The notes beneath the pieces are model-generated. The model ran no database searches and was not told where the DNA came from. It worked only from the letters and a program-made list of their open reading frames with translations. DNA of 64,000 nucleotides from Candidatus Omnitrophica bacterium UBA6215 (lineage in GTDB: Bacteria > Omnitrophota > Gorgyraeia > Pluralincolimonadales > Pluralincolimonadaceae): NCBI GenBank assembly GCA_002421665.1, contig DISH01000006.1, forward strand, positions 153,784-217,783, read 5' to 3'. This document shows, piece by piece, positions 15,945 through 39,603 of the stretch; position 1 is the stretch's first letter, and each line of letters starts with the position of its first letter. Made by a program: the position numbers and the translations under genes.

Positions 15945-15945
15945 T

Positions 15946-16299
15946 TTATTCCTCCTGACTCCTTGAAATAAGAACTATATCTTCTCCTGCCCTGTTTAGG
16001 GTAACTTCATCCTCTGTTATTTTTATGACCTTATAATCCCCGAGTATATCGCCCACTCTCAGGACGGTGCCGCTTATCAGGGCATAAGAATCTCCGCCCT
16101 CCGACCAAACTATTCCCTCAAGATTGAGTTGGACGGACGAGTTCGCCGGCCTGGCCTCCGGGAGTATGTTGCCGTCTTTATCTACCAACGGCCTGAAGGG
16201 ATCTCTTTTGTTATTGACGTTATATTTGAATACCGGCTGGGCAAAAACAAACGGGACAACCGTAAACACCAGGATAGCGGCCAATATCATCTTCCTCAT
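15946..16299 (-). CDS. pilP: Pilus assembly protein PilP-like
   Basis: 117 aa. Signal peptide plus a beta domain. Position between pilO and pilQ. Confidence 0.6.
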   Translation of the reverse strand: MRKMILAAILVFTVVPFVFAQPVFKYNVNNKRDPFRPLVDKDGNILPEARPANSSVQLNLEGIVWSEGGDSYALISGTVLRVGDILGDYKVIKITEDEVTLNRAGEDIVLISRSQEE

Positions 16300-16928
16300 T
16301 TAGCCTTGGCCTCCTCATTCAGTACATAGGCGATTATGAGCAGTCTGGCGCTGTGGTTGGATATATCATCGGCGTTGGAATGCAATTCTATATCGCCTAT
16401 AGACATCACATTGGGGGCGGTCTCGACCCTGTTTATAAACTCGGCTATTTCATGGTAACCGCCTCTCGCCTCTACCTGAATAGGTATCTCGGAATATAAC
16501 GCCTTAGGCTTTCCGGCTTCCTGCTTGGCAACCGGTTTGCCCTTTGCCCCATTTGAAGGATTTAACTGTTTCTCGGAACGTAACGGTTCTATCTTGCTTA
16601 TCTTTACTTTGCAATCCGAGGCCATACCTGAGATCTCTTGCAATATATTCGGCATGTCCGTATGTGCGGGTATGGCCTTTTCATAAGCATCCACCTGCGC
16701 CGTAAGCTTTTCGAGCCGTTTCTCGAGTTGCGGTTTATTTTTTATAAGGCTATCCGCATTCTTAAGGGCTTCGCGTTCCCTGGTTATATCCTTATTGAGC
16801 TTCCCGATACCGCCCAAAAGCGGTAATGTCGAGAATTGGATAAGCGCAAAAAAAGCTATCGCTACCCCTATGCCTATCAGGACCAGTTTTTCCGTGTCTT
16901 CTTTGGAAAGTTTCGGCTTCTCCGCCAA
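16296..16928 (-). CDS. pilO: Pilus assembly protein PilO
   Basis: Single N-terminal TM, then a coiled coil, then an ferredoxin-like domain. Synteny pilM-N-O-P-Q. Confidence 0.7.
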   Translation of the reverse strand: MAEKPKLSKEDTEKLVLIGIGVAIAFFALIQFSTLPLLGGIGKLNKDITREREALKNADSLIKNKPQLEKRLEKLTAQVDAYEKAIPAHTDMPNILQEISGMASDCKVKISKIEPLRSEKQLNPSNGAKGKPVAKQEAGKPKALYSEIPIQVEARGGYHEIAEFINRVETAPNVMSIGDIELHSNADDISNHSARLLIIAYVLNEEAKAK

Positions 16929-16929
16929 G

Positions 16930-17544
16930 TTAAAGCCCTCTCCCTTTCTTAAAATGGCAGATTATGACAAAATCCATTATCTCGGTATTCTTGATCTTCT
17001 TCCTTTCGACTTTGGAAAGCTCTATCTCATCGAAATCGCTAAAGAACGATTGGTTATCTTTAAGGGCATTTACAAACGGGCCTATGCACCCGTCTTCGCG
17101 GCCGTCCCCTACCACGCTCGAGCCTTCTATTACCATGACCTCTTTCAGGAACCCCGGCTCTCCGGAAGATTCTCCCTTCTTTACGTCCAGGCTGCGCAGC
17201 CACACGCCGGGGACCATGGAATTTGAAAGGTCGTTCAACTTCCTGGCCAGGTTAAACCTCGACGTCCTTAATTTATCTACGGCATCGGCCTTAACGGAAA
17301 GTGCCTTGACAGAGCTGTCTACCTTTACCGCATCGGAATTGGCAATTTGTACCGCTTCATTCTTTTTCTTCAGCGAAGCCAGCGCCGCCCCTTTGAATTG
17401 CAGGACTAGGAACAGCAATACCTGGAGCACAACAAGGGCAATTACTATGGCTACGGCTATCGGCACCACAGGCAAGGCAGGAAGGTCAATGGGCTCTTTC
17501 TTCCTGACCCTCATCTGCACCGGCAAAAGGTTTATCTCTATCAT
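16930..17544 (-). CDS. pilN: Pilus assembly protein PilN
   Basis: MIEINLLPVQMR... is a typical PilN start. Single TM. Confidence 0.7.
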   Translation of the reverse strand: MIEINLLPVQMRVRKKEPIDLPALPVVPIAVAIVIALVVLQVLLFLVLQFKGAALASLKKKNEAVQIANSDAVKVDSSVKALSVKADAVDKLRTSRFNLARKLNDLSNSMVPGVWLRSLDVKKGESSGEPGFLKEVMVIEGSSVVGDGREDGCIGPFVNALKDNQSFFSDFDEIELSKVERKKIKNTEIMDFVIICHFKKGRGL

Positions 17545-17545
17545 A

Positions 17546-18472
17546 TCATTGCCTTATAGCCAATCCTATACATACCGCCATCTGGCCCGAGATTTCCTTA
17601 AGCGCCTTGGAATCCACTTTCGGCGAAATAACAAGTTTGGCCGTAGGGTCCCATACTATCATCTCTAACCCGAAAGCCTGCTTAAGCCTTTCGTTGACCG
17701 CCGTATCCTTGGCCCCTCCGCCGCTTATATATATCCCGTCTATCCCCTTGCCGAACTGGTTCTCATAATAATCGAAAGACAGCCTTATCTGGGTCTCGAG
17801 GGCATCTATACTCTTTATCTCAACCGGGATATCGCGTGCAAAATTAAGCGTTTCATCCTTTAATATGCAAACGTTCGTCATGCTGGCGCCGATATTCAGC
17901 AAAGCTACCGTCCTGTCCTTTCCGGCACCCGCATTGTTGAAAATAAATGAATTTGTTACGGCTATGGAATCGCAATCAACGGCTTCGGGCGCTATGCCTG
18001 CATCGTTCATGTAGGTTATATACTCACCCACGAGGTCCTTCTTTGCGGCTACTATAAGCACTTTTACCTTGCCGCCCTCGACCTTGCCGTCAATCATCTG
18101 CGCGTCTATATATACTTCATTTATACCAAAAGGTATGTACTTCTCAGCCTCGAATTGCAGCGCGGAATGCAATTCGTCTGAACTCAACTTGGGGAAAAGC
18201 ACCTGCCTGACAACTACAGATTGGCCCGAGACCGATATTACCGCTTTCTGTATCTTCGTCTCCTGCTTCGCAATGAAACGCTTAAGGGCAGCGGCAACGC
18301 TTTCCCTGGAACGCTCTCCCTCTATCTGTTCGATGGAAAAACGGTCGATCTGCATGGCGCCCGTCTTTTGTTTTGAGATGAAAACGGACTTTATTGAGGA
18401 GGTCCCGATATCCAGCGCGACCTTATTCTTTGACGCGCCCAGGTTCAAGAAGGGTATTTTTATCTCTTTCAT
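17546..18472 (-). CDS. pilM: Pilus assembly protein PilM (actin-like ATPase fold)
   Basis: 308 aa. DIGTSSIKSV and GGGA motifs (FtsA/MreB-like fold). Confidence 0.85.
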   Translation of the reverse strand: MKEIKIPFLNLGASKNKVALDIGTSSIKSVFISKQKTGAMQIDRFSIEQIEGERSRESVAAALKRFIAKQETKIQKAVISVSGQSVVVRQVLFPKLSSDELHSALQFEAEKYIPFGINEVYIDAQMIDGKVEGGKVKVLIVAAKKDLVGEYITYMNDAGIAPEAVDCDSIAVTNSFIFNNAGAGKDRTVALLNIGASMTNVCILKDETLNFARDIPVEIKSIDALETQIRLSFDYYENQFGKGIDGIYISGGGAKDTAVNERLKQAFGLEMIVWDPTAKLVISPKVDSKALKEISGQMAVCIGLAIRQ

Positions 18473-18475
18473 GTC

Positions 18476-18934
18476 TTATTCGATCGGCGTATCGGTGCTG
18501 CCGGCCCTATCCCCGGCCTTCGCCCTTATTATACCCGTCTCATCGGTAAAGAAGTACCTGTTGCCTGTCTTGCCAGGAGAAACAGGGTCCGCGTTCAGGT
18601 CAAAGTTCTCGGAGTCTGAAAATGAATAATCGAACTGGTAGCCTTGCTTTTTCCCTTTGACAGCCAGGACCGAATCAAGATACGGAGGATCGGATTTCGG
18701 TGCCGCAAGCTCATCAAGAGACGCTGGATAAGTATGGGGGTTGCTGTTCGTGTAATAACTTTGGCAGGCGGTCTGTATCGTCTTGCATGATACTATAGCG
18801 GATGCCTCATTGGCATTTATCCTGGAAGTCAAGAAAATGGGTATGGCAATGGCCGCCAAAGTTGAAATGATGGCGATGACGATCATTATCTCAACCAAAG
18901 TAAAACCGTAGTTTGTATATTTTTCTCTCGCCAT
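18476..18934 (-). CDS. Type IV pilin paralog A (prepilin)
   Basis: Class III signal: leader MAREKYTNYG | FTLVEIMIVIAIISTLAAIAIP. It is 3 nt upstream of pilM. Confidence 0.8.
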   Translation of the reverse strand: MAREKYTNYGFTLVEIMIVIAIISTLAAIAIPIFLTSRINANEASAIVSCKTIQTACQSYYTNSNPHTYPASLDELAAPKSDPPYLDSVLAVKGKKQGYQFDYSFSDSENFDLNADPVSPGKTGNRYFFTDETGIIRAKAGDRAGSTDTPIE

Positions 18935-18997
18935 TGAATTTTAGTTTATATTTTTTACGCAAAAAAGTCAAGAAAAATTCCGAATTTTCACTAATCG

Positions 18998-19026
18998 TTG
19001 ATATTGAGGCTGCGTTGTAGTATACT
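18998..19026 (+). promoter_or_regulatory. Consensus sigma70 promoter for minor-pilin operon
   Basis: TTGATA, 17 nt, TATACT, followed by SD gggagga and the ATG at 19047. Confidence 0.6.
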
Positions 19027-19046
19027 TTTATCGGGAGGATAATAAG

Positions 19047-19529
19047 ATGTTTACCTCACGCAGGACAAGAGGTTTCACCCTTCTGGAGTTAATGCTCTCT
19101 GCCGCGATACTTATCGTGGCAATAGGGGGGCTTTTATCGGCCTATATATTGTGTTTCCACCTTACCGAAACCGCTAAGAACACTACACTTGCCACTAATG
19201 CCATCCAGCTTAAAATGGAAGAGATCCGCGACACGGATTTTGACGAGATAATAACGGACTACGACAATACCACTTTCGCAGTAAATGGTTTCAGCGCGGG
19301 GCAGGCCATCGGGGCCATCACCGTCGAAAGCATTAGTACGGACCTGTTGAGGGTGACCGTAAGCGTTTGCTGGCGTCAAAGCGGCAACAGGATAATGGGC
19401 GAGGATAACGGCAGAGGCGGCGGAGTGATCCTAAGCGGGCATCTTGAAGGCACCGAAGATGTGAACGGGAACGGCATCGTGGATTCGCCCGCGATGATCT
19501 CCACCCTTATGATAAACAGGGGCACATGA
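19047..19529 (+). CDS. Minor pilin, PilV/GspI-like
   Basis: RTRGFTLLELMLSAAILIVAIGG prepilin N-terminal methylation motif. Confidence 0.7.
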   Translation: MFTSRRTRGFTLLELMLSAAILIVAIGGLLSAYILCFHLTETAKNTTLATNAIQLKMEEIRDTDFDEIITDYDNTTFAVNGFSAGQAIGAITVESISTDLLRVTVSVCWRQSGNRIMGEDNGRGGGVILSGHLEGTEDVNGNGIVDSPAMISTLMINRGT

Positions 19530-20095
19530 CCATGAAGGCTCCAAGCACGCGAAGACATGGTTTAAGCCTCGTAGAGGTTATGATAACGGTCGCTATAATA
19601 TCCGTTATAGGCGGCGCTTTGGCCTATTTCCTGATCATAGGCTCTTCATCCTGGCGAAGCGGCGATGCCGAAATCCAGGCAAACCAGGAAGCCAGGATCG
19701 GAATGATGACCATGATAAAGGAGATAAGGCAGGCCAAGGACGGAAATATTAAAACGATGTCCGGGACATTGTACGCCGACAATACGGCCTATGACAATAT
19801 AATGTTCGTGATCAGTTCGGATACGGATGGTGACGGCGATACGATAGATACGACCGGGGCGCTCGAATGGTCGGCGCCGATATCGTATTACCTTTCCGGG
19901 ACACAGCTGGTAAGGCAGTCCGAAAGCAGCATAAAAATAGTGGCAAATCACGTTACGGCCCTACAGTTCGTGATAGTCGTGGACACCCTTAAAGGGACCC
20001 GGGTACTAAACGTTACCATCCAGACCGTAAAGAAAAGCGCCGACGGCCGGCAGATGACGTCAACCCTTACCAGCAGCGTAAACATGAGGAACTAA
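19526..20095 (+). CDS. Minor pilin, PilW/GspJ-like
   Basis: RRHGLSLVEVMITVAIISVIGG. Overlaps its neighbours by 4 nt. Confidence 0.65.
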   Translation: MTMKAPSTRRHGLSLVEVMITVAIISVIGGALAYFLIIGSSSWRSGDAEIQANQEARIGMMTMIKEIRQAKDGNIKTMSGTLYADNTAYDNIMFVISSDTDGDGDTIDTTGALEWSAPISYYLSGTQLVRQSESSIKIVANHVTALQFVIVVDTLKGTRVLNVTIQTVKKSADGRQMTSTLTSSVNMRN

Positions 20096-20099
20096 AAAG

Positions 20100-21371
20100 A
20101 TGAAAAACAGAAAAGGTTTCATGCTGATATTCTCTTACGCTGTGGTCAGTGTCATAGTTATTCTGGTAGCAGCCTATGTGGCGCGCAGCATAAATGAGAT
20201 AAGGATGGCCCAGCGCGAGAAGAATTCCGCAGCGGCGCTTTATGCGGCGGAAGCGGGCATAGATTACGCTTTCGACTGGCTTAAATCTCAGGGTACTCCC
20301 CCGTCGGGAACCTCATCTTTCAGCGTGACCGGCGGCCCGTCCCTCACTACGGGGACCTATTCGGTGGTCATCGATCCCAACGACTCAAATCCTACGTCAT
20401 ATTCCAAGAGATATAACATAATAGCGACGGGCCAGTGCGGGGACTCCGTCCGGACGGTGAACCTGGAAGTAACCCAGGATAACTTTTCCAGACACGTATG
20501 GTTTACGGATTCCGAGACCTATGACGGGGCATCGGTATGGTTCGTTACCAATGACAGCCTTAACGGGCCTGTCCATACCAACGGTAGATTCAACATTTCC
20601 GGAGATCCGTGGTTCGGGGACGTTACGAGCGAGAGCGGTTCCTCGATCAATTATATGCACGGAGGTCCGCCCAATGACAACCCCACTTTCGAGGAAGGAA
20701 TAGACTTCAACGTGGAATCCAGCGAAATGCCGACAAGGGCAACCAGCCTCAGGAACGCCGCGTCAAGCGGGGGGATGAGGCTTTACGGGCAGACCACGAT
20801 AGTACTTAACTCGAACGGAACGATGAATGTTACAAATTTCAACGCCGGGTACAATAACACCAATATGGCCCTCCCGGCGAACGGAGCTATATTCGTCGAG
20901 AACAGGATAGTCAACAGGAGGCTTGTGGAATACGGAAATGTTACCGTAAGCGGGACCCTTGACGGAAGGCTTTCGATAGGCGCCAACAATAATATTAATA
21001 TCGGAGGCAATATTACTTACAGCGATGCCTCCGGCGACGATATGCTCGGCCTGATAGCCGAACAGGACCTGGTCATCCTTCAGAGTTCCTGTCCTACCAA
21101 CGGGAACCTTACCATACAAGCCAGCATGATGGCAATGTCGGATGCCTTCTATCTCGATAACTGGACTTCATCCATGAAGGGAACATTGAATGTCCTGGGA
21201 GGTATAATCCAGAAAGAGCGCGGTCCGGTCGGTACCTTCAACACCTACACAAACTCCAAGGCAAGCGGCTTTACGAAGAACTACGTATACGATGAGAGGC
21301 TGAGAACGACTCCTCCTCCTTTCTTCCCAACAACCGAAGACTTTATACCGGTATCCTGGAGGGAACAATGA
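20100..21371 (+). CDS. PilX-like large minor pilin with beta-helix-like C-terminal domain
   Basis: PilX_N-like start KGFMLIFSYAVVSVIVILVAAYVARSINEIRMAQREKNSAAALYAAEAG. C-terminal 250 aa are rich in N-x-T/G repeat strands (NVTNFNAGYNNTN...GANNNINIGGNITYSD). Confidence 0.65.
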   Translation: MKNRKGFMLIFSYAVVSVIVILVAAYVARSINEIRMAQREKNSAAALYAAEAGIDYAFDWLKSQGTPPSGTSSFSVTGGPSLTTGTYSVVIDPNDSNPTSYSKRYNIIATGQCGDSVRTVNLEVTQDNFSRHVWFTDSETYDGASVWFVTNDSLNGPVHTNGRFNISGDPWFGDVTSESGSSINYMHGGPPNDNPTFEEGIDFNVESSEMPTRATSLRNAASSGGMRLYGQTTIVLNSNGTMNVTNFNAGYNNTNMALPANGAIFVENRIVNRRLVEYGNVTVSGTLDGRLSIGANNNINIGGNITYSDASGDDMLGLIAEQDLVILQSSCPTNGNLTIQASMMAMSDAFYLDNWTSSMKGTLNVLGGIIQKERGPVGTFNTYTNSKASGFTKNYVYDERLRTTPPPFFPTTEDFIPVSWREQ

Positions 21372-21754
21372 CAAAGAACCAAATAATAATAGCCGGAGCC
21401 TTATTTATACTGATCGTGCTAATCGCCGCGCCTTTATGGAAATCCGGGAAGGAACCGGTCATTCCCCAGGCAAACCCTGAGGTCCGGGAAACCGTACCGC
21501 AGGCAGGGATCTTCGAATTGCCACCCTCCGGCGGGAACAATACGGAAGGGCCCGTAATGACAACAACGGTGACAACTGCCGTAAACGCCGACCAGCCGCG
21601 TAAAAAAGCTCCCAATAAGGCAAGACATATTGAGGAAGAACCGCAGGACAAGGGTTACGATTCAATAGACCCGGGCCTCGTGCCTAACCCGCCTAAATCA
21701 CCTTCGCCCGAGATAATAAGGAATATGCAAAAGAAGGGTATAGTACTCTACTAA
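21368..21754 (+). CDS. Hypothetical membrane-anchored Pro-rich protein, last gene of minor-pilin operon
   Basis: N-terminal TM helix (IIIAGALFILIVLIAAPLW), then a Pro/Thr-rich low-complexity region. Overlaps the PilX-like gene by 4 nt. Confidence 0.45.
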   Translation: MTKNQIIIAGALFILIVLIAAPLWKSGKEPVIPQANPEVRETVPQAGIFELPPSGGNNTEGPVMTTTVTTAVNADQPRKKAPNKARHIEEEPQDKGYDSIDPGLVPNPPKSPSPEIIRNMQKKGIVLY

Positions 21755-21767
21755 ACTACGCAGCCGC

Positions 21768-22208
21768 TTATTCTATTGGATTGCCGGACGCGTCATCGAC
21801 CCTTATCACGCCTGATTCGTCCACAAAGAATACCCTCACGCCCGTTATATTGGGAGTTACAGGCGCAGCCGTGCACGTATACTGGTTAGCGCTGACCAAA
21901 GCATAGGTAAACGTATAACCCTGTTTCGTGCCGCTCCCGAGCGTGGAATCTATGTAAGGAGGGTTATCGCTGCTTAATGTCACCAGGTCCGGCGGATATG
22001 TAGAAGGGTTCTGCATGGCGCGGTAACTTTCACATGCCGTGCTGATAGTTCTCATGGATGCTATGGCCGAAGATTCATTCGCGTTAGCGCGCGCCCTTAT
22101 AAAACCAGGTATGGCTATAACGGCCATGATGGTAATGATCGAGACGACTATCATTATCTCTACCAGAGTAAAACCTCTCCTTGCAGAAAACTCGGGCTTC
22201 ATAGGCAA
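21768..22208 (-). CDS. Type IV pilin paralog B (prepilin)
   Basis: RRGFTLVEIMIVVSIITIMAVIAIP. Probable ATG start at 22202 (MKPEF...). C-terminal TKQGYTFTYALVSANQYTCTAAPVT is shared with paralog C. Confidence 0.8.
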   Translation of the reverse strand: MPMKPEFSARRGFTLVEIMIVVSIITIMAVIAIPGFIRARANANESSAIASMRTISTACESYRAMQNPSTYPPDLVTLSSDNPPYIDSTLGSGTKQGYTFTYALVSANQYTCTAAPVTPNITGVRVFFVDESGVIRVDDASGNPIE

Positions 22209-22243
22209 TTAGTTTATATCCGTGCCGATAAAATGTCAATAAG

Positions 22244-22281
22244 CGAAAAAGAAAGAGCGGGAATCAACTTCCCGCTCTTTC
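22244..22281 (-). terminator. Rho-independent terminator after pilin paralog C
   Basis: Stem aaagagcgggaa / ttcccgctcttt with a 5-nt loop. Followed on the minus strand by cuuuuucgcuu. Confidence 0.6.
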
Positions 22282-22306
22282 CATTAAACCTTTTTACGCC
22301 CGAATA

Positions 22307-22738
22307 TTATTCGATCGGGTTACCTGCGGCGTTGTTAAGCCTTAAAACGCCCGATTCATCGACGAAGAACGTCCTCGAACCGGTGACGTTCGCCGTTACA
22401 GGCGCAGCCGTGCACGTATACTGGTTAGCGCTGACCAAAGCATAGGTAAACGTATAACCCTGTTTCGTGCCACCCGCCAAAGTCGCATCGATGTACGGGG
22501 GAGTAGCTGATCCCAAAACCGCCAAGTTGGCCGGATACGTTACCGGGCTCTGTGCAGCTCTGAAGCTTTCGCAAGCCGTGCTGATTGTACGAAGCGAGGC
22601 TATGGCAGCCGCTTCGTTAGCGTTGAGCCTTGCGCGTAGTAAGTTGGGTATCGCTATCGCCGCTAATAGAGCTATAATTGCGACTACGATCATGATTTCA
22701 ACGAGCGTAAAACCCTTCCTTCTTACTAATCTACTCAT
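22307..22738 (-). CDS. Type IV pilin paralog C (prepilin), probable major pilin
   Basis: Leader MSRLVRRKG | FTLVEIMIVVAIIALLAAIAIP. Strong SD (aaggagggg). Own promoter and own terminator. Confidence 0.8.
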   Translation of the reverse strand: MSRLVRRKGFTLVEIMIVVAIIALLAAIAIPNLLRARLNANEAAAIASLRTISTACESFRAAQSPVTYPANLAVLGSATPPYIDATLAGGTKQGYTFTYALVSANQYTCTAAPVTANVTGSRTFFVDESGVLRLNNAAGNPIE

Positions 22739-22790
22739 CTCCGTTCCCCTCCTTTCGTCCTTGTCAGGACTATTGTTATCCGTTGTTTAC

Positions 22791-22818
22791 AGTATAACAT
22801 AAAAGACACTTGTGTCAA
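22791..22818 (-). promoter_or_regulatory. Sigma70 promoter for pilin paralog C
   Basis: TTGACA (overlapping the pilC stop), 16 nt, TATACT. A ~50-nt leader follows, with an SD. Confidence 0.5.
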
Positions 22819-22823
22819 GAACT

Positions 22824-24035
22824 CTATTTAGCGACCACCTGGATCAGTTTAACTATGGGCAGGAACATAGATACTACTATACCCCCGACAACTATACCGA
22901 GAAAAGCGATTATAAGCGGCTCGATAAGGCTTGTCAGCCCGGAGACCGCGGCGTCAACTTCGCTCTCGTAGAAGTCCGCGATCTTACTGAGCATCTCCTC
23001 GAGCTTACCGGTCTGCTCTCCCACCGATATCATCCTTGTCACCATGGGCGGGAATACCTTGCTTGCCGCCAGAGGCTGTGCTATGGATTCGCCCTCTTTA
23101 ATGCTCAATTTCGTTTGTATGACGGCCATCTCTATGACCTTGTTTCCGGACGTCTTGCCGACTATCTCCAGTGCGGTCAGTATGGACACACCGCTTTTTT
23201 GGAGCGTGGAAAGCGTCCTGGCAAACCTCGCGACCGCCACTTTCCGCAACAACGGCCCGATCACGGGGATCTTGAGCAGCAACCTGTCCCAGGCCAACGC
23301 ACCCTTCTCTGTCTTTATCAATTTAGAAAGAATGAATATAAATGCGCCGAGAGCGATGATCACGATCAGTATCCATTTCCTTAAAATGTCGGATATGGCT
23401 ATAAGTATAAGTGTCGGCACGGGAAGGGAAACGCCTATCGTAGAGAATATGTTCTTGAACGTCGGCACCACAAAGATTATCAGGAACATCGTGATCGCTA
23501 TGGCCATGAATATTACTACCGCCGGGTATATCAGGCTGGATTTCACCTTCCTGACAAGCGCAATGGTCTTCTCCATGTATATAGCGACCCTGTCGAGTAT
23601 CTCATCAAGGTCGCCGCTTGATTCTCCGGCGCGGACCATATTGATGAAGAACGGCGAAAATACGTTCGGCTGCTTGCTTAAAGATTCCGAAAGGCTCAAG
23701 CCCCCTTCCACGTTGTCCCGGACTTTCCTGACTATATTCTTGAAGCCCGCCCTCTCCATCTGGTCCTGCAGTGCGTCGAGCGCGCCTACAAGGGGAATGC
23801 CCGCGTCAACCATGGTGGCGAGCTGCCTCGAGAAGATGACGAGGTCCTCCGGCGATGCCTTGTCACCCCCTATCGACATCGAGGCCTTCGCCTTCTCCCT
23901 GACTTCCTCAATAGAGATGATGGTAAGTTCTTTCTGCCTAAGGACATCGACAAGGGACGCGCTGTTAGCCGAATCCATAACGCCGCTAACGGCTTTGCCG
24001 TCCTTGTCCCTGGCAGTGTACCTGAAATTGGGCAA
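22824..24035 (-). CDS. pilC: Type IV pilus platform protein PilC (GspF family)
   Basis: 403 aa. Two T2SSF repeats and three TM segments. NFRYTARDKDGK start is typical. Confidence 0.85.
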   Translation of the reverse strand: MPNFRYTARDKDGKAVSGVMDSANSASLVDVLRQKELTIISIEEVREKAKASMSIGGDKASPEDLVIFSRQLATMVDAGIPLVGALDALQDQMERAGFKNIVRKVRDNVEGGLSLSESLSKQPNVFSPFFINMVRAGESSGDLDEILDRVAIYMEKTIALVRKVKSSLIYPAVVIFMAIAITMFLIIFVVPTFKNIFSTIGVSLPVPTLILIAISDILRKWILIVIIALGAFIFILSKLIKTEKGALAWDRLLLKIPVIGPLLRKVAVARFARTLSTLQKSGVSILTALEIVGKTSGNKVIEMAVIQTKLSIKEGESIAQPLAASKVFPPMVTRMISVGEQTGKLEEMLSKIADFYESEVDAAVSGLTSLIEPLIIAFLGIVVGGIVVSMFLPIVKLIQVVAK

Positions 24036-24036
24036 T

Positions 24037-25749
24037 TTATTCCTCCGAGGTAACCCTCAAGACTTCTTCAACGGTAGTATTCCCCAGGGCAAGGTTCTCA
24101 AGCGCCGCAGCCCTGAGCGTAAGCATCCCTTTCTCTTTTACGGCATAATCTTTTATCTTATCGCTGTGCACCCTGTCAAGTATCATCTCTTTTATCTTAT
24201 CATCTATTATAAGGTTTTCCAGGATGGCGAACCTGCCGAAGTACCCGGTCTTGTTGCATTTGGCGCAGCCTTTCCCCTGATAGAATACGGCTTTGCCCTT
24301 TTCGGTATAGCCTATCCTGTCTAAAACCTCCTTCTTTATCTCCACCGCTTCCTTGCAATTCGGGCAGACACGTCGCATAAGCCTTTGCGCGCAGATAAAG
24401 ACCACGCTGGAAGCGACAAGGAACGGTTCGACACCCATATCTATAAGCCTGGTTATAGCGCTGGAGGCATCGTTGGTGTGGAGAGTGGACAATAGCAGCT
24501 GTCCGGTCAACGAAGCTTTTATGGCGATATCCGCCGTTTCGAAGTCGCGGATCTCGCCTACCATCACTATGTCCGGCGCCTGGCGCAGGAATGCGCGAAG
24601 GCCGTTCGCAAATGTCAGCCCTATCTCGGGTTTGACCTGTACCTGGGTTATGCCCATCAGCTCATATTCTATCGGGTCCTCTATCGTCACTATGTTCTTT
24701 TCGGGCGTATTCAGTATATTGAGTATGGAATAAAGCGTGGTAGATTTACCGCTTCCCGTAGGACCGGTGACAAGGAACATTCCGTAAGGTTTGGATATGG
24801 CCTCCTTGAGCTCCTCAAGAGTCTTAGGCAAAAAACCCAATTTCTCGGGCGAGACCTTTATGCTTTGTTTATCGAGGACTCGGCATACGACCTTTTCCCC
24901 GTGGACCAACGGAAGCGTCGAGACGCGGAAATCTATCTCTCTTTCATCCATCCTTACCTTGAACCTGCCGTCCTGAGGCAGGCGCCATTCCGTGATGTCC
25001 ATGTCAGACATGATCTTGAGCCTGGTCAATACCGCCGCCTGGTTCGACTTAGGAAGATGCGAGAACTCGGTAAGCGCACCGTCTATCCTGTAGCGTATGC
25101 GCATGTCTTTCTCGAGGGGTTCTACATGTATATCGGAAGCCCTCCTCTTGAGCGCCTCGCTGACAATGACATCGACCATCTTCAGTATAGGCGCTTTCTG
25201 GCTTTCAATGGCAAGCTCAGATACGTCGAACCTCTCCTCGTCCTCGCTGACGGACATGACCTCGACGTCCTCTGAACCGACATCCTGGATGATCTTGTTT
25301 ATCGAAAGGGTCTCTTCCCCGTAATAGGCGGATATGGCATCCCTTATGTCCTTGTCCGTGGCAAGGACAGGGTCTATCTCATATTTAGTCAATATCTTAA
25401 GGTCATCCAGCGCGAATATATCCAGCGGGTCCGACATGGCAACGGTCATCCTGCTGCCTATCTTGGATACGGGTATTACATGATAAAGCCGGGTTATCTT
25501 TTCAGGGACAAGGGATATTATCTCCTTGTCTATCTTGTACTTTGACAGGTTTATCGGGGTTATGCCGAGTTCCTGGCTGAATATGGAAAGCAGCTCGTTC
25601 TCGTTGGCCAGGCCTTTCTCCACGAGTATCTTAGTAAGGCTGCCTCCCTTTTCGTGCTGGGTCTTTATGGCCTCGTCGAGCTTCTCCTTGGTAACGACGC
25701 CTTTGTTCACCAGGACCTCCGCTATCTTATCCCTAAGGCTTTTTGCCAT
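24037..25749 (-). CDS. pilB: Type IV pilus extension ATPase PilB/MshE-type, paralog 1, with N-terminal MshEN (c-di-GMP-binding) motifs
   Basis: 570 aa. Tandem MshEN motifs KIAEVLVNKGVVTKEKLDEAIKTQ, spacer HEKGG, SLTKILVEKGLANENELLSIFSQ. Walker A GPTGSGKSTT. Tetracysteine CPNCK...CAKC. Confidence 0.85.
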   Translation of the reverse strand: MAKSLRDKIAEVLVNKGVVTKEKLDEAIKTQHEKGGSLTKILVEKGLANENELLSIFSQELGITPINLSKYKIDKEIISLVPEKITRLYHVIPVSKIGSRMTVAMSDPLDIFALDDLKILTKYEIDPVLATDKDIRDAISAYYGEETLSINKIIQDVGSEDVEVMSVSEDEERFDVSELAIESQKAPILKMVDVIVSEALKRRASDIHVEPLEKDMRIRYRIDGALTEFSHLPKSNQAAVLTRLKIMSDMDITEWRLPQDGRFKVRMDEREIDFRVSTLPLVHGEKVVCRVLDKQSIKVSPEKLGFLPKTLEELKEAISKPYGMFLVTGPTGSGKSTTLYSILNILNTPEKNIVTIEDPIEYELMGITQVQVKPEIGLTFANGLRAFLRQAPDIVMVGEIRDFETADIAIKASLTGQLLLSTLHTNDASSAITRLIDMGVEPFLVASSVVFICAQRLMRRVCPNCKEAVEIKKEVLDRIGYTEKGKAVFYQGKGCAKCNKTGYFGRFAILENLIIDDKIKEMILDRVHSDKIKDYAVKEKGMLTLRAAALENLALGNTTVEEVLRVTSEE

Positions 25750-25753
25750 GGCC

Positions 25754-27463
25754 TTATTCCTGTTCTCCCAGCGTAACGCGAAGGATCTCTTCCAATGTCG
25801 TGATGCCCTCGAAGACCTTTCTCAATCCTGACTCCCTCAAAGTGACAAGTCCCGCCCTCCTGGCCGCTTCATATATCTGGTTCTCGTGGGCTCTCTTCGC
25901 TACAAGTTCCCTCAGCTCCGCGTTCATCGCGACGGCTTCGATGAGCCCTATCCTGCCCCTGAAACCGGTTTTAAAACAGTAGTCGCATCCTTTGCCTTTA
26001 TAGAATTTTGCATCGACCCCTGCGGGTATCTTTATCTTCAACTTTTCAAGCATGGACTTGTGTATCTCCTGCGGCTCCTTGCAGCGCGGACATACCCTCC
26101 TCACGAGCCGCTGCGCGGCGACAAGCGCAACAGATGAGCTGATAAGAAAAGGCTCGACCCCCATATTGACCAGTCTCATTATGACCCCGGTAGCAGTATT
26201 GGTATGCAAAGTGCTCAGGACCAGATGGCCCGTAAGGGCGGCCTTTATGGCTATATCAACGGTCTCGAGATCCCTTATCTCCCCTACCATTATTATGTTA
26301 GGGTCCTGCCTGAGTATCGAACGCAGGCAGGCCGCGTACGTAAGACCTATCTCGGTATTTATATTGACCTGGTTTATCCCCGGCAAAAGATACTCTACCG
26401 GGTCCTCAACCGTAACAAAATTCTTTTCGGGTACATCTATGCTTTTTAGTATGGAGTAAAGCGTTGTCGTCTTGCCCGAACCGGCCGGGCCGCAGACAAG
26501 TATCATGCCATGCGGCCTCTTCGAGGCCTTCTTCAACTCCTCGAGGGGCTCCTTTTCGAACCCGAGTTTTTCTATATCGAGCATAGCCTGGGATTTATCG
26601 AGGATCCTGAGAGCGACCTTCTCGCCGAAAGCTGTAGGTACGGTCGACACCCTGAAGTCCACCTCCCTGTCCTGCACCCTTATCTTGAACCTTCCGTCCT
26701 GGGGAAGGCGGCGCTCTGCTATATTAAGATTGGACATTACTTTTATCCTGGATATCATCGCCGACTGTATGGAGCGCGGCAATGACTGCGCCTCCCTGAA
26801 GATCCCGTCAACCTTATACCTTATCCTCAGGCGGTCTTCCATCGGTTCGATAAGTATGTCGCTCGCGCGCGATTTGGTTGCATCAAGGACGACTGCCGAC
26901 GTCAGCTTGACCACGGGAGTGTCTATGGCCGCATCCTTAAGGTCATATGGACTCTCGTCATCCTTCCTCATGGATATGAGCTCTATATTCGTCTCTTTGA
27001 CCAGGTCCTCGATGGCAGACGTCGCCTGGCTTCCATAATGCTGTTCGATAGCCGCCTTTATATCGTCTGAGGTCGTTATGATAGGGCTTATATCCATGCC
27101 GGTCACGGTCTTTATATCATCCAACGCGAAGACGTTAAGCGGATCCGACATCGCAACCGTCAGGATATTACCCATCTTGGAAACGGGTATTATCTGGTAA
27201 TTAACGGCTATCTTCTTGGGAATGAATTTGGATATTTCGGGATCTATCTTGAATTTTGAAAGGGATATGGGGGGTATCCCAAGCTCCTGGCTTAGTATCG
27301 CCAGGAGGTCCCGCTGGTTTATCGCGCCCTGGGAGACCAGAATATCCCCCAGAGAACCGCCTTTTTCCTTTTGCACCTGGAGGGCCTGGTTAAGCTTATC
27401 TTCGGATATTATGCCCTTCTTTATAAGTATCTCGCTTAGCCGTTCCTTTATACCAGATGGCAT
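25754..27463 (-). CDS. PilB/MshE-type ATPase paralog 2 with N-terminal MshEN motifs
   Basis: 569 aa. ERLSEILIKKGIISEDKLNQALQVQ, spacer KEKGG, SLGDILVSQGAINQRDLLAILSQ. Walker A GPAGSGKTTT. CPRCK...CDYC. Confidence 0.85.
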   Translation of the reverse strand: MPSGIKERLSEILIKKGIISEDKLNQALQVQKEKGGSLGDILVSQGAINQRDLLAILSQELGIPPISLSKFKIDPEISKFIPKKIAVNYQIIPVSKMGNILTVAMSDPLNVFALDDIKTVTGMDISPIITTSDDIKAAIEQHYGSQATSAIEDLVKETNIELISMRKDDESPYDLKDAAIDTPVVKLTSAVVLDATKSRASDILIEPMEDRLRIRYKVDGIFREAQSLPRSIQSAMISRIKVMSNLNIAERRLPQDGRFKIRVQDREVDFRVSTVPTAFGEKVALRILDKSQAMLDIEKLGFEKEPLEELKKASKRPHGMILVCGPAGSGKTTTLYSILKSIDVPEKNFVTVEDPVEYLLPGINQVNINTEIGLTYAACLRSILRQDPNIIMVGEIRDLETVDIAIKAALTGHLVLSTLHTNTATGVIMRLVNMGVEPFLISSSVALVAAQRLVRRVCPRCKEPQEIHKSMLEKLKIKIPAGVDAKFYKGKGCDYCFKTGFRGRIGLIEAVAMNAELRELVAKRAHENQIYEAARRAGLVTLRESGLRKVFEGITTLEEILRVTLGEQE

Positions 27464-27478
27464 AAGCCCCGGGCGCTC

Positions 27479-27925
27479 CTATTTTTTGTAGAATTTATCT
27501 ATAGATTGCTTTATATCCGTTGCGGTAGATACGAATATCTGGATAGAACAGTTCGTAACCAGTTCTATATCCTCTATAGCCTGGGTGTTGAGCGGATCGG
27601 CCATGGCTATTGTTACGGTATTGCCTATTTTGTCGATGGGTATCAGGCAATATTGGCGGGCAACGTTCTCCGGGACCATCTTTATGGCTGCTTCATCCAT
27701 GTCATAATTGGACAGAGGCAGGTACGGAAAACCGTACTGGACGGTGATGGCCTGGGCGATCTGCTCTTCGGTAACATAACCTAATCCGGCGAGTATCTGC
27801 CCGAGCAGTCCTCCCTTCTCTTTCTGGACCTTTAGGGCCTCATCCAGCTGGACCTGTTTTATAACCCCTTTTTCGAGGAGCAGCTGCCCTATTGTCTTCG
27901 TTATAACGCGTCTGGCTGAGCTCAT
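27479..27925 (-). CDS. Stand-alone MshEN + GSPII (T2SSE_N) domain protein with no ATPase domain; putative c-di-GMP receptor/adaptor
   Basis: 148 aa. TIGQLLLEKGVIKQVQLDEALKVQ, spacer KEKGG, LLGQILAGLGYVTEEQIAQAITVQ. Continues with a GSPII-like fold that aligns to the PilB paralog-2 N-terminus. Confidence 0.7.
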   Translation of the reverse strand: MSSARRVITKTIGQLLLEKGVIKQVQLDEALKVQKEKGGLLGQILAGLGYVTEEQIAQAITVQYGFPYLPLSNYDMDEAAIKMVPENVARQYCLIPIDKIGNTVTIAMADPLNTQAIEDIELVTNCSIQIFVSTATDIKQSIDKFYKK

Positions 27926-27934
27926 CTTCCCCTG

Positions 27935-29002
27935 TTATTTCCTGAAAAGCCTGTCAAGGTCGTCGGGATCGCTGCTGCGCAGTATCGCGTCCTCATAAGA
28001 TATCAGTTTCCTGCTGTACAGTTCGAAGAGGGTCTGGTTCATCGTCCTCATCCCCTCCTTCTGGCTCGTCTGGATCACCGAATAAAGTTGGTGCGTCTTC
28101 GCTTCCCTTATGAGGCTGCGGACCGCTGGAGTTGCTATAAGCACCTCGGTTGCCAGTACCCTCCCCTGGCCGTTCGCCTTCGGTATAAGCTGCTGCGCCA
28201 TAATACCAAGCAGCACGAAAGAAAGCTGGACCCTTACCTGCTGCTGCTGGTGTGAAGGAAAGACATCGATGACCCTGTTTATAGTCTGGACGGAATCTGA
28301 GGTGTGGAGAGTAGAAAAGACCAGATGGCCCGTCTCGGCGATATCAAGCGCCGCCTCGATAGTCTCGAGGTCGCGCATCTCACCGATAAGTATGACGTTA
28401 GGATCCTGCCTCAACACGTGCTTTAGCGATTGCGCAAAAGACTGGGTATCGCTTCCTACTTCTCTCTGATCGACCAGGGCCTTCTTGTTCTTATGGACAT
28501 ACTCTATAGGGTCCTCTATTATGACTATATGGCAATTCCTCTCGGAATTTATTTTATCGACCATTGAGGCGAGTGTCGTCGACTTTCCGCTTCCGGTCGC
28601 TCCCGTGACAAGCACAAGCCCCCTGGGCCTTTTGCAGAGGTCTTCGGCAACATTTAGCGGCAGACCGCATTCTTCGAAATTCATTATATGGAGAGGCAGG
28701 AGCCTCACAGCCGCTCCGGTATATCCCCTCTGTACGAATACATTGACCCTGAAACGGCCCAGGCCTTCGATGCCGAACGAGACATCAAGTTCCATCTCGC
28801 GCTCAAACTTCTCTATCTGCGCCGGTTTGAGCATGCTGTATGCAAGCCTCTTAGAATCTTCTGCGCCAAGAGGCGGGAATTCCGTAGGCACGAGTTTCTC
28901 ATCTATCCTTAATTGCGGCGGGGAAGAATATGAGATATGAAGGTCTGACGCGCCCTTTTGGACCATCAGTTTAAGCAATGACTCTATCTGGACGTTAACC
29001 AT
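27935..29002 (-). CDS. pilT: Twitching-motility retraction ATPase PilT
   Basis: 355 aa. GLVLVTGATGSGKSTT Walker A. AIRNLIRE-like motif (AVRSLIRE). PilT size, lacking the N-terminal domain of PilB. Confidence 0.9.
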   Translation of the reverse strand: MVNVQIESLLKLMVQKGASDLHISYSSPPQLRIDEKLVPTEFPPLGAEDSKRLAYSMLKPAQIEKFEREMELDVSFGIEGLGRFRVNVFVQRGYTGAAVRLLPLHIMNFEECGLPLNVAEDLCKRPRGLVLVTGATGSGKSTTLASMVDKINSERNCHIVIIEDPIEYVHKNKKALVDQREVGSDTQSFAQSLKHVLRQDPNVILIGEMRDLETIEAALDIAETGHLVFSTLHTSDSVQTINRVIDVFPSHQQQQVRVQLSFVLLGIMAQQLIPKANGQGRVLATEVLIATPAVRSLIREAKTHQLYSVIQTSQKEGMRTMNQTLFELYSRKLISYEDAILRSSDPDDLDRLFRK

Positions 29003-29016
29003 TGAACCTCCTTAAA

Positions 29017-30462
29017 TTATGAGATGACCAGATTTTTGCCGCGCGATTTAGCTTCATTGAGCCCGGACGTTGCCTTATTTACGAGCTCCTGCGCGGTAAC
29101 TCCGTCAATAGGGTTCTCGCTCACACCCCCGCTTACGGTAACAAAATTCCTTGGATAACCCTGGCCTCCCGATATGCCGAAAGCCTCAACCCTTTGCTTC
29201 AGGGCTTCGGCTATGGTATTCGCCTGTTTCTTGTTCTTCTCAGGCAATATGACCGCGAACGTGTCCCCGCTTAGTCTTCCGACCCTGTCAACTTCAGTAA
29301 CGTTCGACTCAATGACCTTGCCTATCTTCTTTATGGTCTCTTCCGAGGCGAGTTCCCCATTTATATCCCTGTAAAGGTTAAGATCATCTATATTGAATAT
29401 AAGAAAAGAACACGGCCGCTGGTACAGGACCGCCCTTTTTATCTCCTCTTCAAGGCGGTTCATTATGAATTTCTCGTTATAAAGCCCGGTCAGTTCGTCT
29501 TTAATGGCAAGTTCCTTTGCCTTCGCGGTAAGCAATTCATTCTCGACGGCAATGGCTATCTGTTTGGAAAAAAGCTTTATGAGCTCAACGTCATCTTCCT
29601 TGAATTCGAAATCGGAATCGGCATTTCCGTAGCTGAGCATGCCGAATCCTACGCCATGCGCCATTACCGGGGAGAGGATACAGTTCTTAAGGTCGAAGAA
29701 CTTCAGGAATTCCTCCATCTCCGATGACAACCTTGAACGCCTGTCTATAACGGCTATCTTGCTCTCGGCCAGAAGCTTGCCGAGGTAACCCACCCCCCTC
29801 TTAAGCTTGAAAGACAGGAGGCTTTCCTTGAGATTGTGGCTGGCCTTGATCGCCAGGGTATCCTTCTCCTCGCTAAGCATAACAAAGACCGAATCATCGT
29901 CGGAAAGCTGGGCTATTTTATCTATTACTATCTTTATGGTCTCCTCGAGGGGGGATCCTTGTGTTATAAGGCTGCTTACCTGCAAAAGGCTGGAAAGGAC
30001 AAGGACCTTTTTGCTGATCTCAACGTTTATCTCCTTGGTCCTCTCTCCGTATGACCTGAGCTCATCCATGTTCTCGCGTATCCTGCGGGTCAGGACATTG
30101 AGCGTGGAACCGAGATCACCTATCTCATCCTCGCTCCTGACGTTAATATTGCTGGAGAAATCCCCCTTGGCTATATCCTTGGCCTTGAGGGCCATATCTA
30201 TTATCGGAGAGACTATGTCGCGGACTATCTTGAAACCGAGGAGCGCTATTATTATAGTTATTACGAGGACGGAAGAAACGTCTTTAAGCTCTACATTGGG
30301 GTCGCCTATAAGGTTAAGGAAAGGGAATATGTAGTTCAGGAACAGGTATACACATATTGCCATCGGTATGAGGGACATAAGGACGAAGGCAACCGTAAGC
30401 TTGTAACGCAAACCTGCGGGGACCAGTGACAGCTTTTTAATAAATCCTGTCATCTTTATCAT
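29017..30462 (-). CDS. Membrane HAMP-GAF protein with degenerate GGDEF domain (SGDTF; I-site lost)
   Basis: 481 aa. Two N-terminal TM segments. HAMP (IAKGDFSSNINVRSEDEIGDLGSTLNVL). GAF. GGDEF fold in which the active-site motif is RLSGDTF instead of GG[DE]EF, and the RxxD I-site position reads TEVD. Confidence 0.75.
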   Translation of the reverse strand: MIKMTGFIKKLSLVPAGLRYKLTVAFVLMSLIPMAICVYLFLNYIFPFLNLIGDPNVELKDVSSVLVITIIIALLGFKIVRDIVSPIIDMALKAKDIAKGDFSSNINVRSEDEIGDLGSTLNVLTRRIRENMDELRSYGERTKEINVEISKKVLVLSSLLQVSSLITQGSPLEETIKIVIDKIAQLSDDDSVFVMLSEEKDTLAIKASHNLKESLLSFKLKRGVGYLGKLLAESKIAVIDRRSRLSSEMEEFLKFFDLKNCILSPVMAHGVGFGMLSYGNADSDFEFKEDDVELIKLFSKQIAIAVENELLTAKAKELAIKDELTGLYNEKFIMNRLEEEIKRAVLYQRPCSFLIFNIDDLNLYRDINGELASEETIKKIGKVIESNVTEVDRVGRLSGDTFAVILPEKNKKQANTIAEALKQRVEAFGISGGQGYPRNFVTVSGGVSENPIDGVTAQELVNKATSGLNEAKSRGKNLVIS

Positions 30463-30486
30463 CTCCCTTCTTAATTATTAGTAAAA

Positions 30487-30515
30487 AGTATACTCTTAAC
30501 TAAATTAAGTGTCAA
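30487..30515 (-). promoter_or_regulatory. Consensus sigma70 promoter for the HAMP-GAF-GGDEF gene
   Basis: TTGACA, 17 nt, TATACT, then SD aagggag and the ATG at 30462. Confidence 0.55.
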
Positions 30516-38724: not shown

Positions 38725-38725
38725 A

Positions 38726-39493
38726 TTACATAGCTTTCGCTATATCGCCTTCCCTGATGTCTGTGCCTTCGGTTATGTTGGCGGCGGACATCGTCTCATA
38801 GACCTTCTCCACCTGCGCCTTGGCTATGAGCTTACCGTCCCTGAATACGCCGAATACGACACCCGGGCTGATGCCTTTATTGTTTCCGGCAGCGACTACT
38901 ATAAAATTAAATTCCTTGTTGACCACGAGGACCTTGCCTTCAGCATCGACACCGGGTTTGACAACGATCTTATCAAGCTCGACTTCTTTCTTGGCCTGGA
39001 GATCCTCGACCTGCCTCCTTAAATTATCATTGTCGGATGATACCGCCTTAAGCTGGTCCTGGAGGGAACTGAATTCCTTGAATATCTTGTCATACTGCTC
39101 CTGCAAGGAAGTGCGCGAAATCTTTTCGCTCTCCCAATTGGTCTTTGTCTCGTCAAGCTCCCTGCTCTTGCTGCTGAGCTGGTCCTCCGCGTCTTCCCTG
39201 GCTTTCTTCTCGTCGGCCAGCATTGCGGCGAGCTTCTCAGCCTTATCCTGTAAAGCCGAAACCTTCCCTTTCATGTCTGCCAATTGGGCCTCAAGATCCA
39301 ACTTGGTCTTCTTCTGTTCGCTGAGTTCTTTATCTAAGGCCGCCTTTTCATCTTTAAGGCTATTGAGGGTGTTTTCGGTAGTAAGACGTTCTGAGTTCGC
39401 TTTTTGCAAACCGGTAAAAGATACCGCGGCAAAAATACCCAATCCAAGGCACAATAAAACCAAGATTATTATTACAAGCCGGAACGATTTCAT
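38726..39493 (-). CDS. Membrane-anchored coiled-coil protein with C-terminal small beta domain (unknown)
   Basis: N-terminal TM (LVIIILVLLCLGLGIFAAV). ~170 aa of E/K/Q/L-rich heptads. C-terminal GKVLVVNKEFNFIVVAAGNNKGISPGVVFGVFRDGKLIAKAQVEKV. Confidence 0.5.
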   Translation of the reverse strand: MKSFRLVIIILVLLCLGLGIFAAVSFTGLQKANSERLTTENTLNSLKDEKAALDKELSEQKKTKLDLEAQLADMKGKVSALQDKAEKLAAMLADEKKAREDAEDQLSSKSRELDETKTNWESEKISRTSLQEQYDKIFKEFSSLQDQLKAVSSDNDNLRRQVEDLQAKKEVELDKIVVKPGVDAEGKVLVVNKEFNFIVVAAGNNKGISPGVVFGVFRDGKLIAKAQVEKVYETMSAANITEGTDIREGDIAKAM

Positions 39494-39565
39494 TTGTTCC
39501 TCCTTTTATTTGGCTTTACTTATTGACCGGGGATTATTATATCTTACGTGAGACCGGCAATGCAA

Positions 39566-39603
39566 GAAAAAAATACTCCCTTGCGCCAATCCGCAAAGGA
39601 GTA
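39566..39603 (-). terminator. Strong rho-independent terminator after small membrane-protein gene
   Basis: Minus-strand RNA: uacuccuuugcg-gauugg-cgcaagggagua followed by uuuuuuuc. The stem is 12 bp including one G-U. Confidence 0.65.

Follow-up and report, generated by a model that had tools for sequence, protein, structure and literature searches.

Organization of the gene and its product

The window analysed here, a stretch of 64,000 nucleotides of contig DISH01000006.1 from Candidatus Omnitrophica bacterium UBA6215, carries a type IVa pilus gene cluster. The motor genes of this cluster are headed by an intact open reading frame (ORF) on the minus strand (29017..30462) that encodes a protein of 481 amino acids (aa) with two transmembrane helices, a HAMP domain, a GAF domain and a degenerate GGDEF domain. 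An AlphaFold model of the protein has a mean predicted local distance difference test score (pLDDT) of 81.4. The true start codon is likely to be the ATG at 30453 (M4), which would correct the ATG at 30462 and give a product of 478 aa: a GGGAG Shine-Dalgarno sequence lies 9 nt upstream of the ATG at 30453 but directly abuts the one at 30462, and several orthologues are 472-478 aa long.

Hydropathy analysis revealed hydrophobic peaks centred at about residues 29-44 and 65-79, both ahead of the HAMP domain, and the AlphaFold model contains long helices at residues 16-51 and 59-98. The first transmembrane helix (approximately residues 20-45; 30328..30405, minus strand) is marked by the invariant residues R19, K21 and P33, of which R19 and K21 are conserved cytoplasmic residues N-terminal to the helix; the second spans approximately residues 63-80 (30223..30276, minus strand). 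The periplasmic loop between them, of only about 15 residues, is less conserved than any other segment (mean top-residue frequency 0.27 in the orthologue alignment), and the protein therefore has no periplasmic sensor domain. The HAMP domain (residues 79-130; 30073..30228, minus strand) was detected by Pfam PF00672 (E-value 4.2e-11, 43.4 bits against a cut-off of 25) and carries the canonical AS1 proline, P86, and the DEIGxL...N connector/AS2 motif, in which D112, E113, G115 and N122 are invariant among the orthologues. With its two transmembrane helices, HAMP domain, AS1 proline and DEIGxL motif, the protein belongs to the HAMP-containing transmembrane signal transducers.

A signalling helix (residues 131-170; 29953..30072, minus strand; helix 113-167 in the model) leads from the HAMP domain to the GAF domain and is the most conserved segment outside the GGDEF domain (mean top-residue frequency 0.73). 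The GAF domain (residues 171-307; 29542..29952, minus strand) was matched by PF01590 at residues 172-306 with an E-value of 2.1e-10, and a second signalling helix connects it to the degenerate GGDEF domain (residues 320-477; 29032..29505, minus strand). The latter scored 99.9 bits against PF00990 (cut-off 23.8, E-value 1.7e-28) and 97.8 against TIGR00254 (cut-off 37.4), so that all three Pfam domains lie above their gathering scores. Its fold is intact: Foldseek gave TM-scores of 0.88-0.89 to the GGDEF domains of WspR and of 3ign, and the GGDEF folds of WspR and PleD superpose on the domain with a root-mean-square deviation of about 2-3 Å. Profile scores and fold thus assign the domain to the GGDEF superfamily. 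A previous inspection of the DNA alone (hereafter the sequence-only reading) had predicted two transmembrane helices, a HAMP domain, a GAF domain and a recognizable GGDEF fold, and hydropathy, the AlphaFold model, Pfam and Foldseek agree with it on each of these. The protein is anchored in the membrane, serves signal transduction and presumably forms a dimer.

Loss of the catalytic and inhibitory-site residues

Residue equivalences were taken from an ungapped HMMER alignment to PleD. The GGEEF signature of PleD (residues 368-372) corresponds to S398-G-D-T-F402, i.e. the sequence SGDTF (29257..29271, minus strand; codons AGC GGG GAC ACG TTC) replaces the GG(D/E)EF motif, and the RxxD inhibitory site (I-site) of PleD (R359-D362) corresponds to T389-E-V-D392 (29287..29298, minus strand). 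Both replacements had been pointed out in the sequence-only reading and hold in the alignment, which revealed four further substitutions: the magnesium-binding D327 is replaced by N357, the guanine-contacting N335 and D344 by R365 and E374, respectively, and R390 of the I-site by A420. At other positions basic residues are found, with K472 and K476 aligned to K442 and R446 of PleD, and R396 aligned to R366. According to a review of the family, D327, N335 and D344 are essential for the activity of GGDEF domains (PMC7288161). The domain thus differs from active diguanylate cyclases both in lacking the glutamate at the fourth position of the signature and in having N357, R365 and E374 at the metal- and guanine-binding positions, and it differs from I-site receptors of the PelD or SgmT type in having TEVD in place of RxxD and A420 in place of R390. 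Because the magnesium-binding aspartate, both guanine-contacting residues, the signature glutamate and both I-site arginines have been lost, neither synthesis of cyclic di-GMP (c-di-GMP) nor its binding at a canonical I-site is expected. The same expectation had been voiced from the signature and the RxxD site, and it is strengthened by the loss of these residues throughout a family of 191 orthologues, described below. The domain is, as judged from its residues, a pseudoenzyme without an I-site.

The change at the position of D344 prompted us to consider a Hypr-type cyclic GMP-AMP synthase. Hypr enzymes have a serine at this position and retain N335, D327 and the GGDEF motif (PMC7288161), whereas E, R and N are found here at the positions of D344, N335 and D327, and this candidate was rejected.

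Conservation within an Omnitrophota family

A protein database search yielded at least 120 full-length relatives of approximately 470-480 aa with 43-99% identity, and all named organisms among them are Candidatus Omnitrophota or Omnitrophica. A scan with one genome per GTDB species gave 277 matching stretches, from which 80 loci (L001-L080) were fetched; one of them (CAZAEH010000004.1) carries a copy that is 99% identical to the window gene and is collinear with the window. An exact match to the window protein was sought in an assembly index, with no hit. Residue statistics were calculated from an alignment of 191 distinct orthologues. By its length, the motifs LPEKNK and SGGVSENPxDG, the N/R/E residues at the positions of D327, N335 and D344, and its synteny, the window gene is a member of an Omnitrophota family, defined here, with HAMP-GAF-degenerate GGDEF architecture encoded in pilus operons. 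Many metagenome-assembled genome records that carry orthologues (binchicken third-party annotation, TPA, assemblies) are titled 'uncultured Planctomycetia/Planctomycetales bacterium'; these loci are collinear with records of Candidatus Omnitrophota and up to 99% identical to them, which probably reflects a problem of taxonomic labelling.

The degenerate GGDEF domain is the best conserved domain of the protein, with at least 95% conservation at 34 of 162 positions, versus 7 of 137 in the GAF domain, which is the least conserved one. Near-invariant residues include F402, R396, D359 and E374 as well as the motifs YQRPC, LPEKNK and SGGVSENPxDG, which are specific to the family. The signature itself occurs in 62 variants, the most frequent being GGDEF (41 of 191 sequences), SGDEF (32) and SGDTF (13), followed by a long tail of rare ones (IDDNF, RDDKF and NVGEF, for instance). 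The entropy at the four variable positions of the signature falls into the 46th-67th percentile, which is average for the domain; in catalytic GGDEF domains, the same positions are among the most conserved residues. As the signature drifts at an average rate within a domain that is better conserved than the rest of the protein, the domain is under selection, but not for catalysis.

Other positions are fixed in the family. The position of N335 is occupied by arginine in 137 and by histidine in 21 of the 191 sequences and by asparagine in none; the position of D344 is glutamate in 187 and aspartate in one; and that of D327 is asparagine in 135 and aspartate in 23. The first I-site position is arginine in only three. 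In our reading, recognition of the substrate was lost early, in an ancestral protein of the Omnitrophota; the signature then drifted, and strong selection for another function maintained the domain. The deviation is specific to this family rather than general in the phylum, because three of the fetched loci (L042, L066 and L073) additionally encode canonical GGDEF domains with the motifs DxDxFKxxNDxxGHxxGD, RxxD and (A/G)G(D/E)EF.

Promoter and transcription unit

A predicted sigma-70-type promoter, TTGACA-17-TATACT (30487..30515, minus strand), matching the consensus at 11 of 12 positions, precedes the gene, and a second one, TTGACA-16-TATACT (22791..22818, minus strand), precedes a pilin gene. 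They are the only two exact matches to TTGACA-N16-18-TATACT in the window, where 0.00 would be expected by chance, and they mark the starts of the motor operon and of the pilin gene. Upstream of the orthologues, a promoter matching at least 10 of 12 positions was found within 150 nt in 58 of 76 loci, compared with 2% of control windows. The looser pattern TTGACA-N16-18-TATA[A/C]T occurs 73 times in the 1.1 Mb of the 80 loci, every time on the gene strand, with 39 sites before the orthologues of the gene, 20 before pilin genes and four before mreB. The consensus promoter assigned to the gene in the sequence-only reading is therefore conserved, and its position directly upstream indicates that the gene starts a transcription unit of its own. 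We also considered a riboswitch in the 5′ untranslated region, but rejected it, as only about 25-30 nt separate the -10 hexamer from the start codon in the window.

The gaps between the genes from this one to pilC are 1-15 nt long. No terminator was found in the 14-nt gap between the gene and pilT, and no convincing one anywhere before the pilin genes. The putative transcription unit, made up of the gene for the degenerate GGDEF protein, pilT, a gene for a stand-alone MshEN protein, two pilB genes and pilC, probably runs through pilC.

The downstream pilus genes and their linkage

The first gene of the unit after the one under study is pilT, encoding the retraction ATPase (27935..29002, minus strand; 483 bits for TIGR01420, whose cut-off is 319), which begins 14 nt past the stop codon. 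After a 9-nt gap it is followed by the gene for a stand-alone MshEN protein of 148 aa that resembles the N1D domain of PilB (27479..27925, minus strand; PF05157 and NF053729). Two pilB paralogues come next, each coding for an MshEN domain and a T2SSE ATPase with a Walker A motif and two CxxC motifs; paralogue 1 (25754..27463, minus strand) is separated from the MshEN gene by 15 nt, and paralogue 2 (24037..25749, minus strand), whose product is 51% identical to that of paralogue 1, by a further 4 nt. The putative motor operon ends with pilC, which codes for the platform protein (22824..24035, minus strand; PF00482 twice and NF052607) and follows after 1 nt. The profile matches thus bear out the gene order given in the sequence-only reading, which had placed the gene upstream of pilT, an MshEN-only gene and two pilB genes.

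The order is widely shared. A gene of the pilus cluster lies next downstream in all 69 loci that extend at least 1.3 kb beyond the orthologue: 53 loci have pilT, 15 have the MshEN-only gene, and one has a canonical GGDEF gene followed by the MshEN-only gene. The gap to this next gene is mostly 14-60 nt. The MshEN-only gene and two pilB genes are present in all 40 loci with at least 6.5 kb of downstream sequence. The possibility, raised beforehand, that homologues of this architecture are never linked to pilus genes is contradicted by these 69 and 40 loci. The tandem arrangement of pilB in all 40 informative loci suggests two specialized extension motors, or possibly a hetero-oligomeric motor.

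MshEN domains and c-di-GMP

Against NF053729, the NCBIfam model of the c-di-GMP motif (cut-off 38), the MshEN-only protein scored 60.3 bits and the N-termini of the two PilB proteins 56.6 and 42.3 bits, and all three MshEN domains align to the structures of MshE and PilF. The MshEN-only protein is 38% identical to the N-terminus of the product of pilB paralogue 1. No other product of the operon is as well conserved (97% identity, compared with 86% for the degenerate GGDEF protein), and it is the most constant neighbour of the latter. A strict MshEN motif pattern (RLGxx...) matched none of the three proteins; by alignment, their two-motif scaffold is conserved, with deviations at the first arginine or at glycine positions. 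At the equivalent of Arg9 in motif 1, the MshEN-only protein of the window has T and the consensus of its family has Q, and the motif glycine is S, T or A in the PilB proteins. We consider it plausible that these MshEN domains bind c-di-GMP. A c-di-GMP-related module at this locus is suggested only by the MshEN-type motifs that the three proteins encoded downstream carry.

No other GGDEF gene was found in the window when all ORFs from the six reading frames were searched with a hidden Markov model derived from the GGDEF domains of the family. No EAL, HD-GYP or PilZ domain was detected by Pfam in 40 of the larger ORFs, a scan outside which lay the ORFs at 51569-63890, the left end of the window and some small ORFs. 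The canonical cyclases of L042, L066 and L073 are encoded inside the pilus cluster (L042:11467-15612; L066:15294-20386; L073:15289-19494), in lineages in which pilT is not adjacent to the gene for the degenerate protein. They are GGDEF-AAA_16(STAND)-HEAT proteins of approximately 1,390 aa with AGDEF and RxxD motifs, accompanied in L066 by a REC-GGEEF protein. An MshEN-only gene directly follows each cyclase block; in L066 and L073 this gene is a second copy. Genes for GGDEF proteins are thus found repeatedly with an MshEN-only gene right behind them.

Proposed function and alternative explanations

We think it somewhat better than an even bet that a HAMP/GAF sensor with the GGDEF pseudoenzyme as its output controls the pilus motors, probably through protein contacts. 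The HAMP motif and the signalling helices are intact and conserved. We infer a mechanism, including a scaffold role, that would operate as follows. The input would be received by the membrane/HAMP part, by a ligand bound in the GAF domain, or by both. The coiled-coil helices would transmit the signal and reposition the paired degenerate GGDEF domains, whose conserved surface would then touch one or more motor components, i.e. the MshEN-only protein, PilT or the PilB paralogues. This contact would bias the pilus between extension and retraction. If the MshEN-type domains sense c-di-GMP, other cyclases would have to supply it.

Several observations weigh against this proposal. The adjacency of genes points to a functional linkage and not to physical contact, and PilT is unlikely to be an obligatory partner, since pilT is not adjacent in about 22% of the loci. 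The equivalents of the phosphate-contacting residues, K472 (174 of 191 orthologues) and K476 (179 of 191), are retained together with R396 (191 of 191), so residual nucleotide binding is possible and the output may be gated by a ligand instead of being a pure scaffold. Finally, 21% of the family members keep a literal GGDEF signature, and a weak or altered activity is possible in these.

In a first alternative, which we consider possible though on the whole unlikely, the remodelled pocket is a nucleotide sensor: the domain would still bind a nucleoside triphosphate or an alarmone (GTP, ATP, (p)ppGpp or some other nucleotide) but not turn it over, and the binding would gate the output. This would be similar to FimX (GDSIF) and PdeA, whose degenerate GGDEF domains bind GTP. 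The alternative overlaps with the mechanism above and differs from it in the input only. Besides K472, K476 and R396, also D359 is kept (187 of 191), and the base-contacting positions are fixed to new residues, namely arginine or histidine at 365 and glutamate at 374. GTP has been reported to modulate activity via the GDSIF domain of FimX (PMC11656802), and PDB entries of PleD with (p)ppGpp exist. On the other hand, the metal-binding aspartate is lost and the acidic residues of the signature are variable, and these normally hold Mg-NTP; a salt bridge between R365 and E374 could simply fill an empty pocket.

A more far-reaching version, offered as a speculation with a small chance of being right, would make the family a new class of GGDEF-derived output or receptor domains. 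The rebuilt pocket, with arginine at the position of N335, glutamate at that of D344 and a Lys-Lys phosphate clamp, would bind another nucleotide or the MshEN-only protein, and the protein would act as a membrane-anchored clutch at the pilus platform that chooses between PilT and the two PilB proteins, its transmembrane/HAMP part reading the pool of pilins in the inner membrane. PilS of Pseudomonas is known to read such a pool. If true, the clutch would be the switch for attachment to host cells among the ultra-small, epibiotic predators and parasites of this phylum.

We find it improbable that the family, or at least its GGDEF and SGDEF members, are still cyclases that feed a local pool of c-di-GMP or another dinucleotide to the MshEN domains, with a recent loss in the window copy. 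The retention of these two signatures in 41 and 32 of the 191 orthologues would fit this, and the canonical GGDEF genes that adjoin MshEN-only genes in L042, L066 and L073 suggest a functional pairing of GGDEF and MshEN proteins. Public annotation also speaks for it, as NCBI and JGI records name family members 'diguanylate cyclase (GGDEF)-like protein' or 'diguanylate cyclase'. However, the three positions reported to be essential read N/R/E in 35 of the 41 members whose signature is a literal GGDEF, asparagine is absent from the position of N335 throughout the family, and the signature varies freely while the rest of the domain is constrained. Nor is the window signature a recent accident, since 25 of the 26 sequences of its clade (at least 70% identity) lack the glutamate at the fourth position (SGDTF, SGDSF, TGDTF etc.). 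The label 'diguanylate cyclase' is probably wrong for the family, given the residues that its members carry.

Less probable still is that the gene has nothing to do with pili and belongs to the cell-shape block upstream (mreBCD-mrdA-rodA and the radical S-adenosylmethionine, rSAM, gene), or is merely a conserved neighbour. Its usual upstream neighbour is indeed the rSAM gene (48 of 61 loci) or rodA (10 of 61). Nevertheless, the conserved promoter separates it from the upstream genes, only the 14 nt without a terminator separate it from pilT, and the pilus cluster including the gene forms one block between the rSAM gene and a DUF2344 gene. Moreover, its association with pil genes is kept in loci that have no mre or rSAM genes within 10 kb upstream, e.g. 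L033 and L048. A sequencing or assembly error behind SGDTF, which the sequence-only reading had raised as a possible objection, or a decaying pseudogene could be dismissed: the ORF is intact, one base change would suffice for S to G but two are needed to turn T (ACG) into E (GAA/GAG), the glutamate is missing from nearly the whole clade, independent assemblies at 72-99% identity have the same or a similar signature, and the degenerate domain is the most conserved part of the protein.

Comparison with known regulators

PelD is the closest to the window protein in appearance and FimX in its proposed mode of working, and the window protein is a member of neither family. PelD, a c-di-GMP receptor in Pel polysaccharide synthesis with a transmembrane-GAF-degenerate GGDEF architecture, uses an inactive GGDEF domain to regulate a machine that spans the cell envelope. 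Among the known degenerate receptors its architecture (a membrane anchor, a GAF domain and an inactive GGDEF domain) is the most similar one. However, PelD has kept an RxxD I-site, at which it binds c-di-GMP, lacks a HAMP domain and is tied to the synthesis of exopolysaccharide, not to pili. The window protein has TEVD in place of this site, in line with the scarcity of arginine at the first I-site position in its family, and structure-sequence and NCBIfam profile searches with the window protein gave no match to PelD.

FimX, too, is a sensor of several domains, including a catalytically dead GGDEF domain (GDSIF), and controls the assembly of type IV pili via the motor ATPase PilB. The FimX proteins of Pseudomonas and Xanthomonas, which consist of REC, PAS, degenerate GGDEF and degenerate EAL domains, act on PilB directly or via PilZ (PMC11656802; PMC5595344). 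FimX is soluble and senses c-di-GMP with its degenerate EAL domain, whereas the window protein has no EAL, REC or PAS domain; conversely, FimX has no HAMP domain, GAF domain or transmembrane helix and is not encoded at the head of a motor operon. The sequence relation is weak, with E-values of 6e-5 to 6e-4 for FimX chains versus 4e-20 for PleD.

The best sequence and structure matches were Dcsbis/PA2771, the phytochrome-linked PadC, PleD and WspR, which share the canonical fold and the sensor-signalling helix-GGDEF topology. Unlike the window protein, these are active enzymes with intact D327, N335, D344 and GG(D/E)EF and usually with RxxD. LapD, CsrD and GdpS resemble it in the concept of a degenerate GGDEF domain only, and its scores against their equivalog models are far under the cut-offs (34.6 versus 1020, 32.9 versus 663 and 33 versus 400, respectively). 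The MshE/PilB receptors (MshE of V. cholerae, PilB of M. xanthus and PilF of T. thermophilus) have counterparts in the MshEN domains of the three downstream proteins, one of which differs from them in standing alone without an ATPase; the window motifs also deviate at Arg9 of motif 1 and at glycine. No curated family covers the degenerate GGDEF protein, all NCBIfam equivalog scores being far below their cut-offs, and no description of the family was found in the literature.

FimX, PelD and MshE are well-known examples of regulators with a degenerate GGDEF domain or of a link of c-di-GMP to pili, so the concept is not new. Within this theme the protein represents an uncharacterized, phylum-wide Omnitrophota family, and it is a clean case of an enzyme turned regulator, in which the catalytic signature drifts through its 62 variants while the domain remains the most conserved one. 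Of the dedicated signalling proteins, it alone is encoded beside the pilus motors without exception in the sampled genomes, which makes it the obvious first candidate for a regulator of the pili, in organisms that cannot yet be manipulated. The Omnitrophota are uncultivated and mostly nano-sized, are thought to be predators or parasites, and have been proposed to attach to their hosts by type IVa pili (PMC10066038). Two papers on Omnitrophota genomes, including this one, discuss these pili and do not mention GGDEF, c-di-GMP or the gene described here.

Genomic context of the pilus cluster

Downstream of the motor unit lie two pilin genes on the minus strand (22307-22738 and 21768-22208; together 21768..22738) with a strong terminator between them (22282..22250). 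The rest of the type IVa pilus cluster (14181..21754) consists of genes for minor pilins and a DUF4900 protein on the plus strand (19047-21754) and, on the minus strand (18934..14181), a pilin-like gene, pilM, a putative pilN, pilO, a small ORF and the secretin gene pilQ. The whole supercluster (14181..30515) is flanked by the gene of a TIGR03960 B12-binding rSAM protein (30522-32156) and by the DUF2344 gene (13576-14001), which is followed by the gene of RNase G. Because TIGR03960 is usually found either fused to DUF2344 or next to it, the pilus block resembles an insertion into a conserved housekeeping array of the order mreBCD-mrdA-rodA-rSAM-DUF2344-rng. Further upstream, the window contains a dcw region (37432-51593, minus strand) with murA, ileS, lspA, a pseudouridine synthase gene, proC, ftsA, ftsQ, ddl and murB. 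With core housekeeping genes as its upstream context, the pilus cluster appears to lie in the chromosomal core, with no obvious mobile element.

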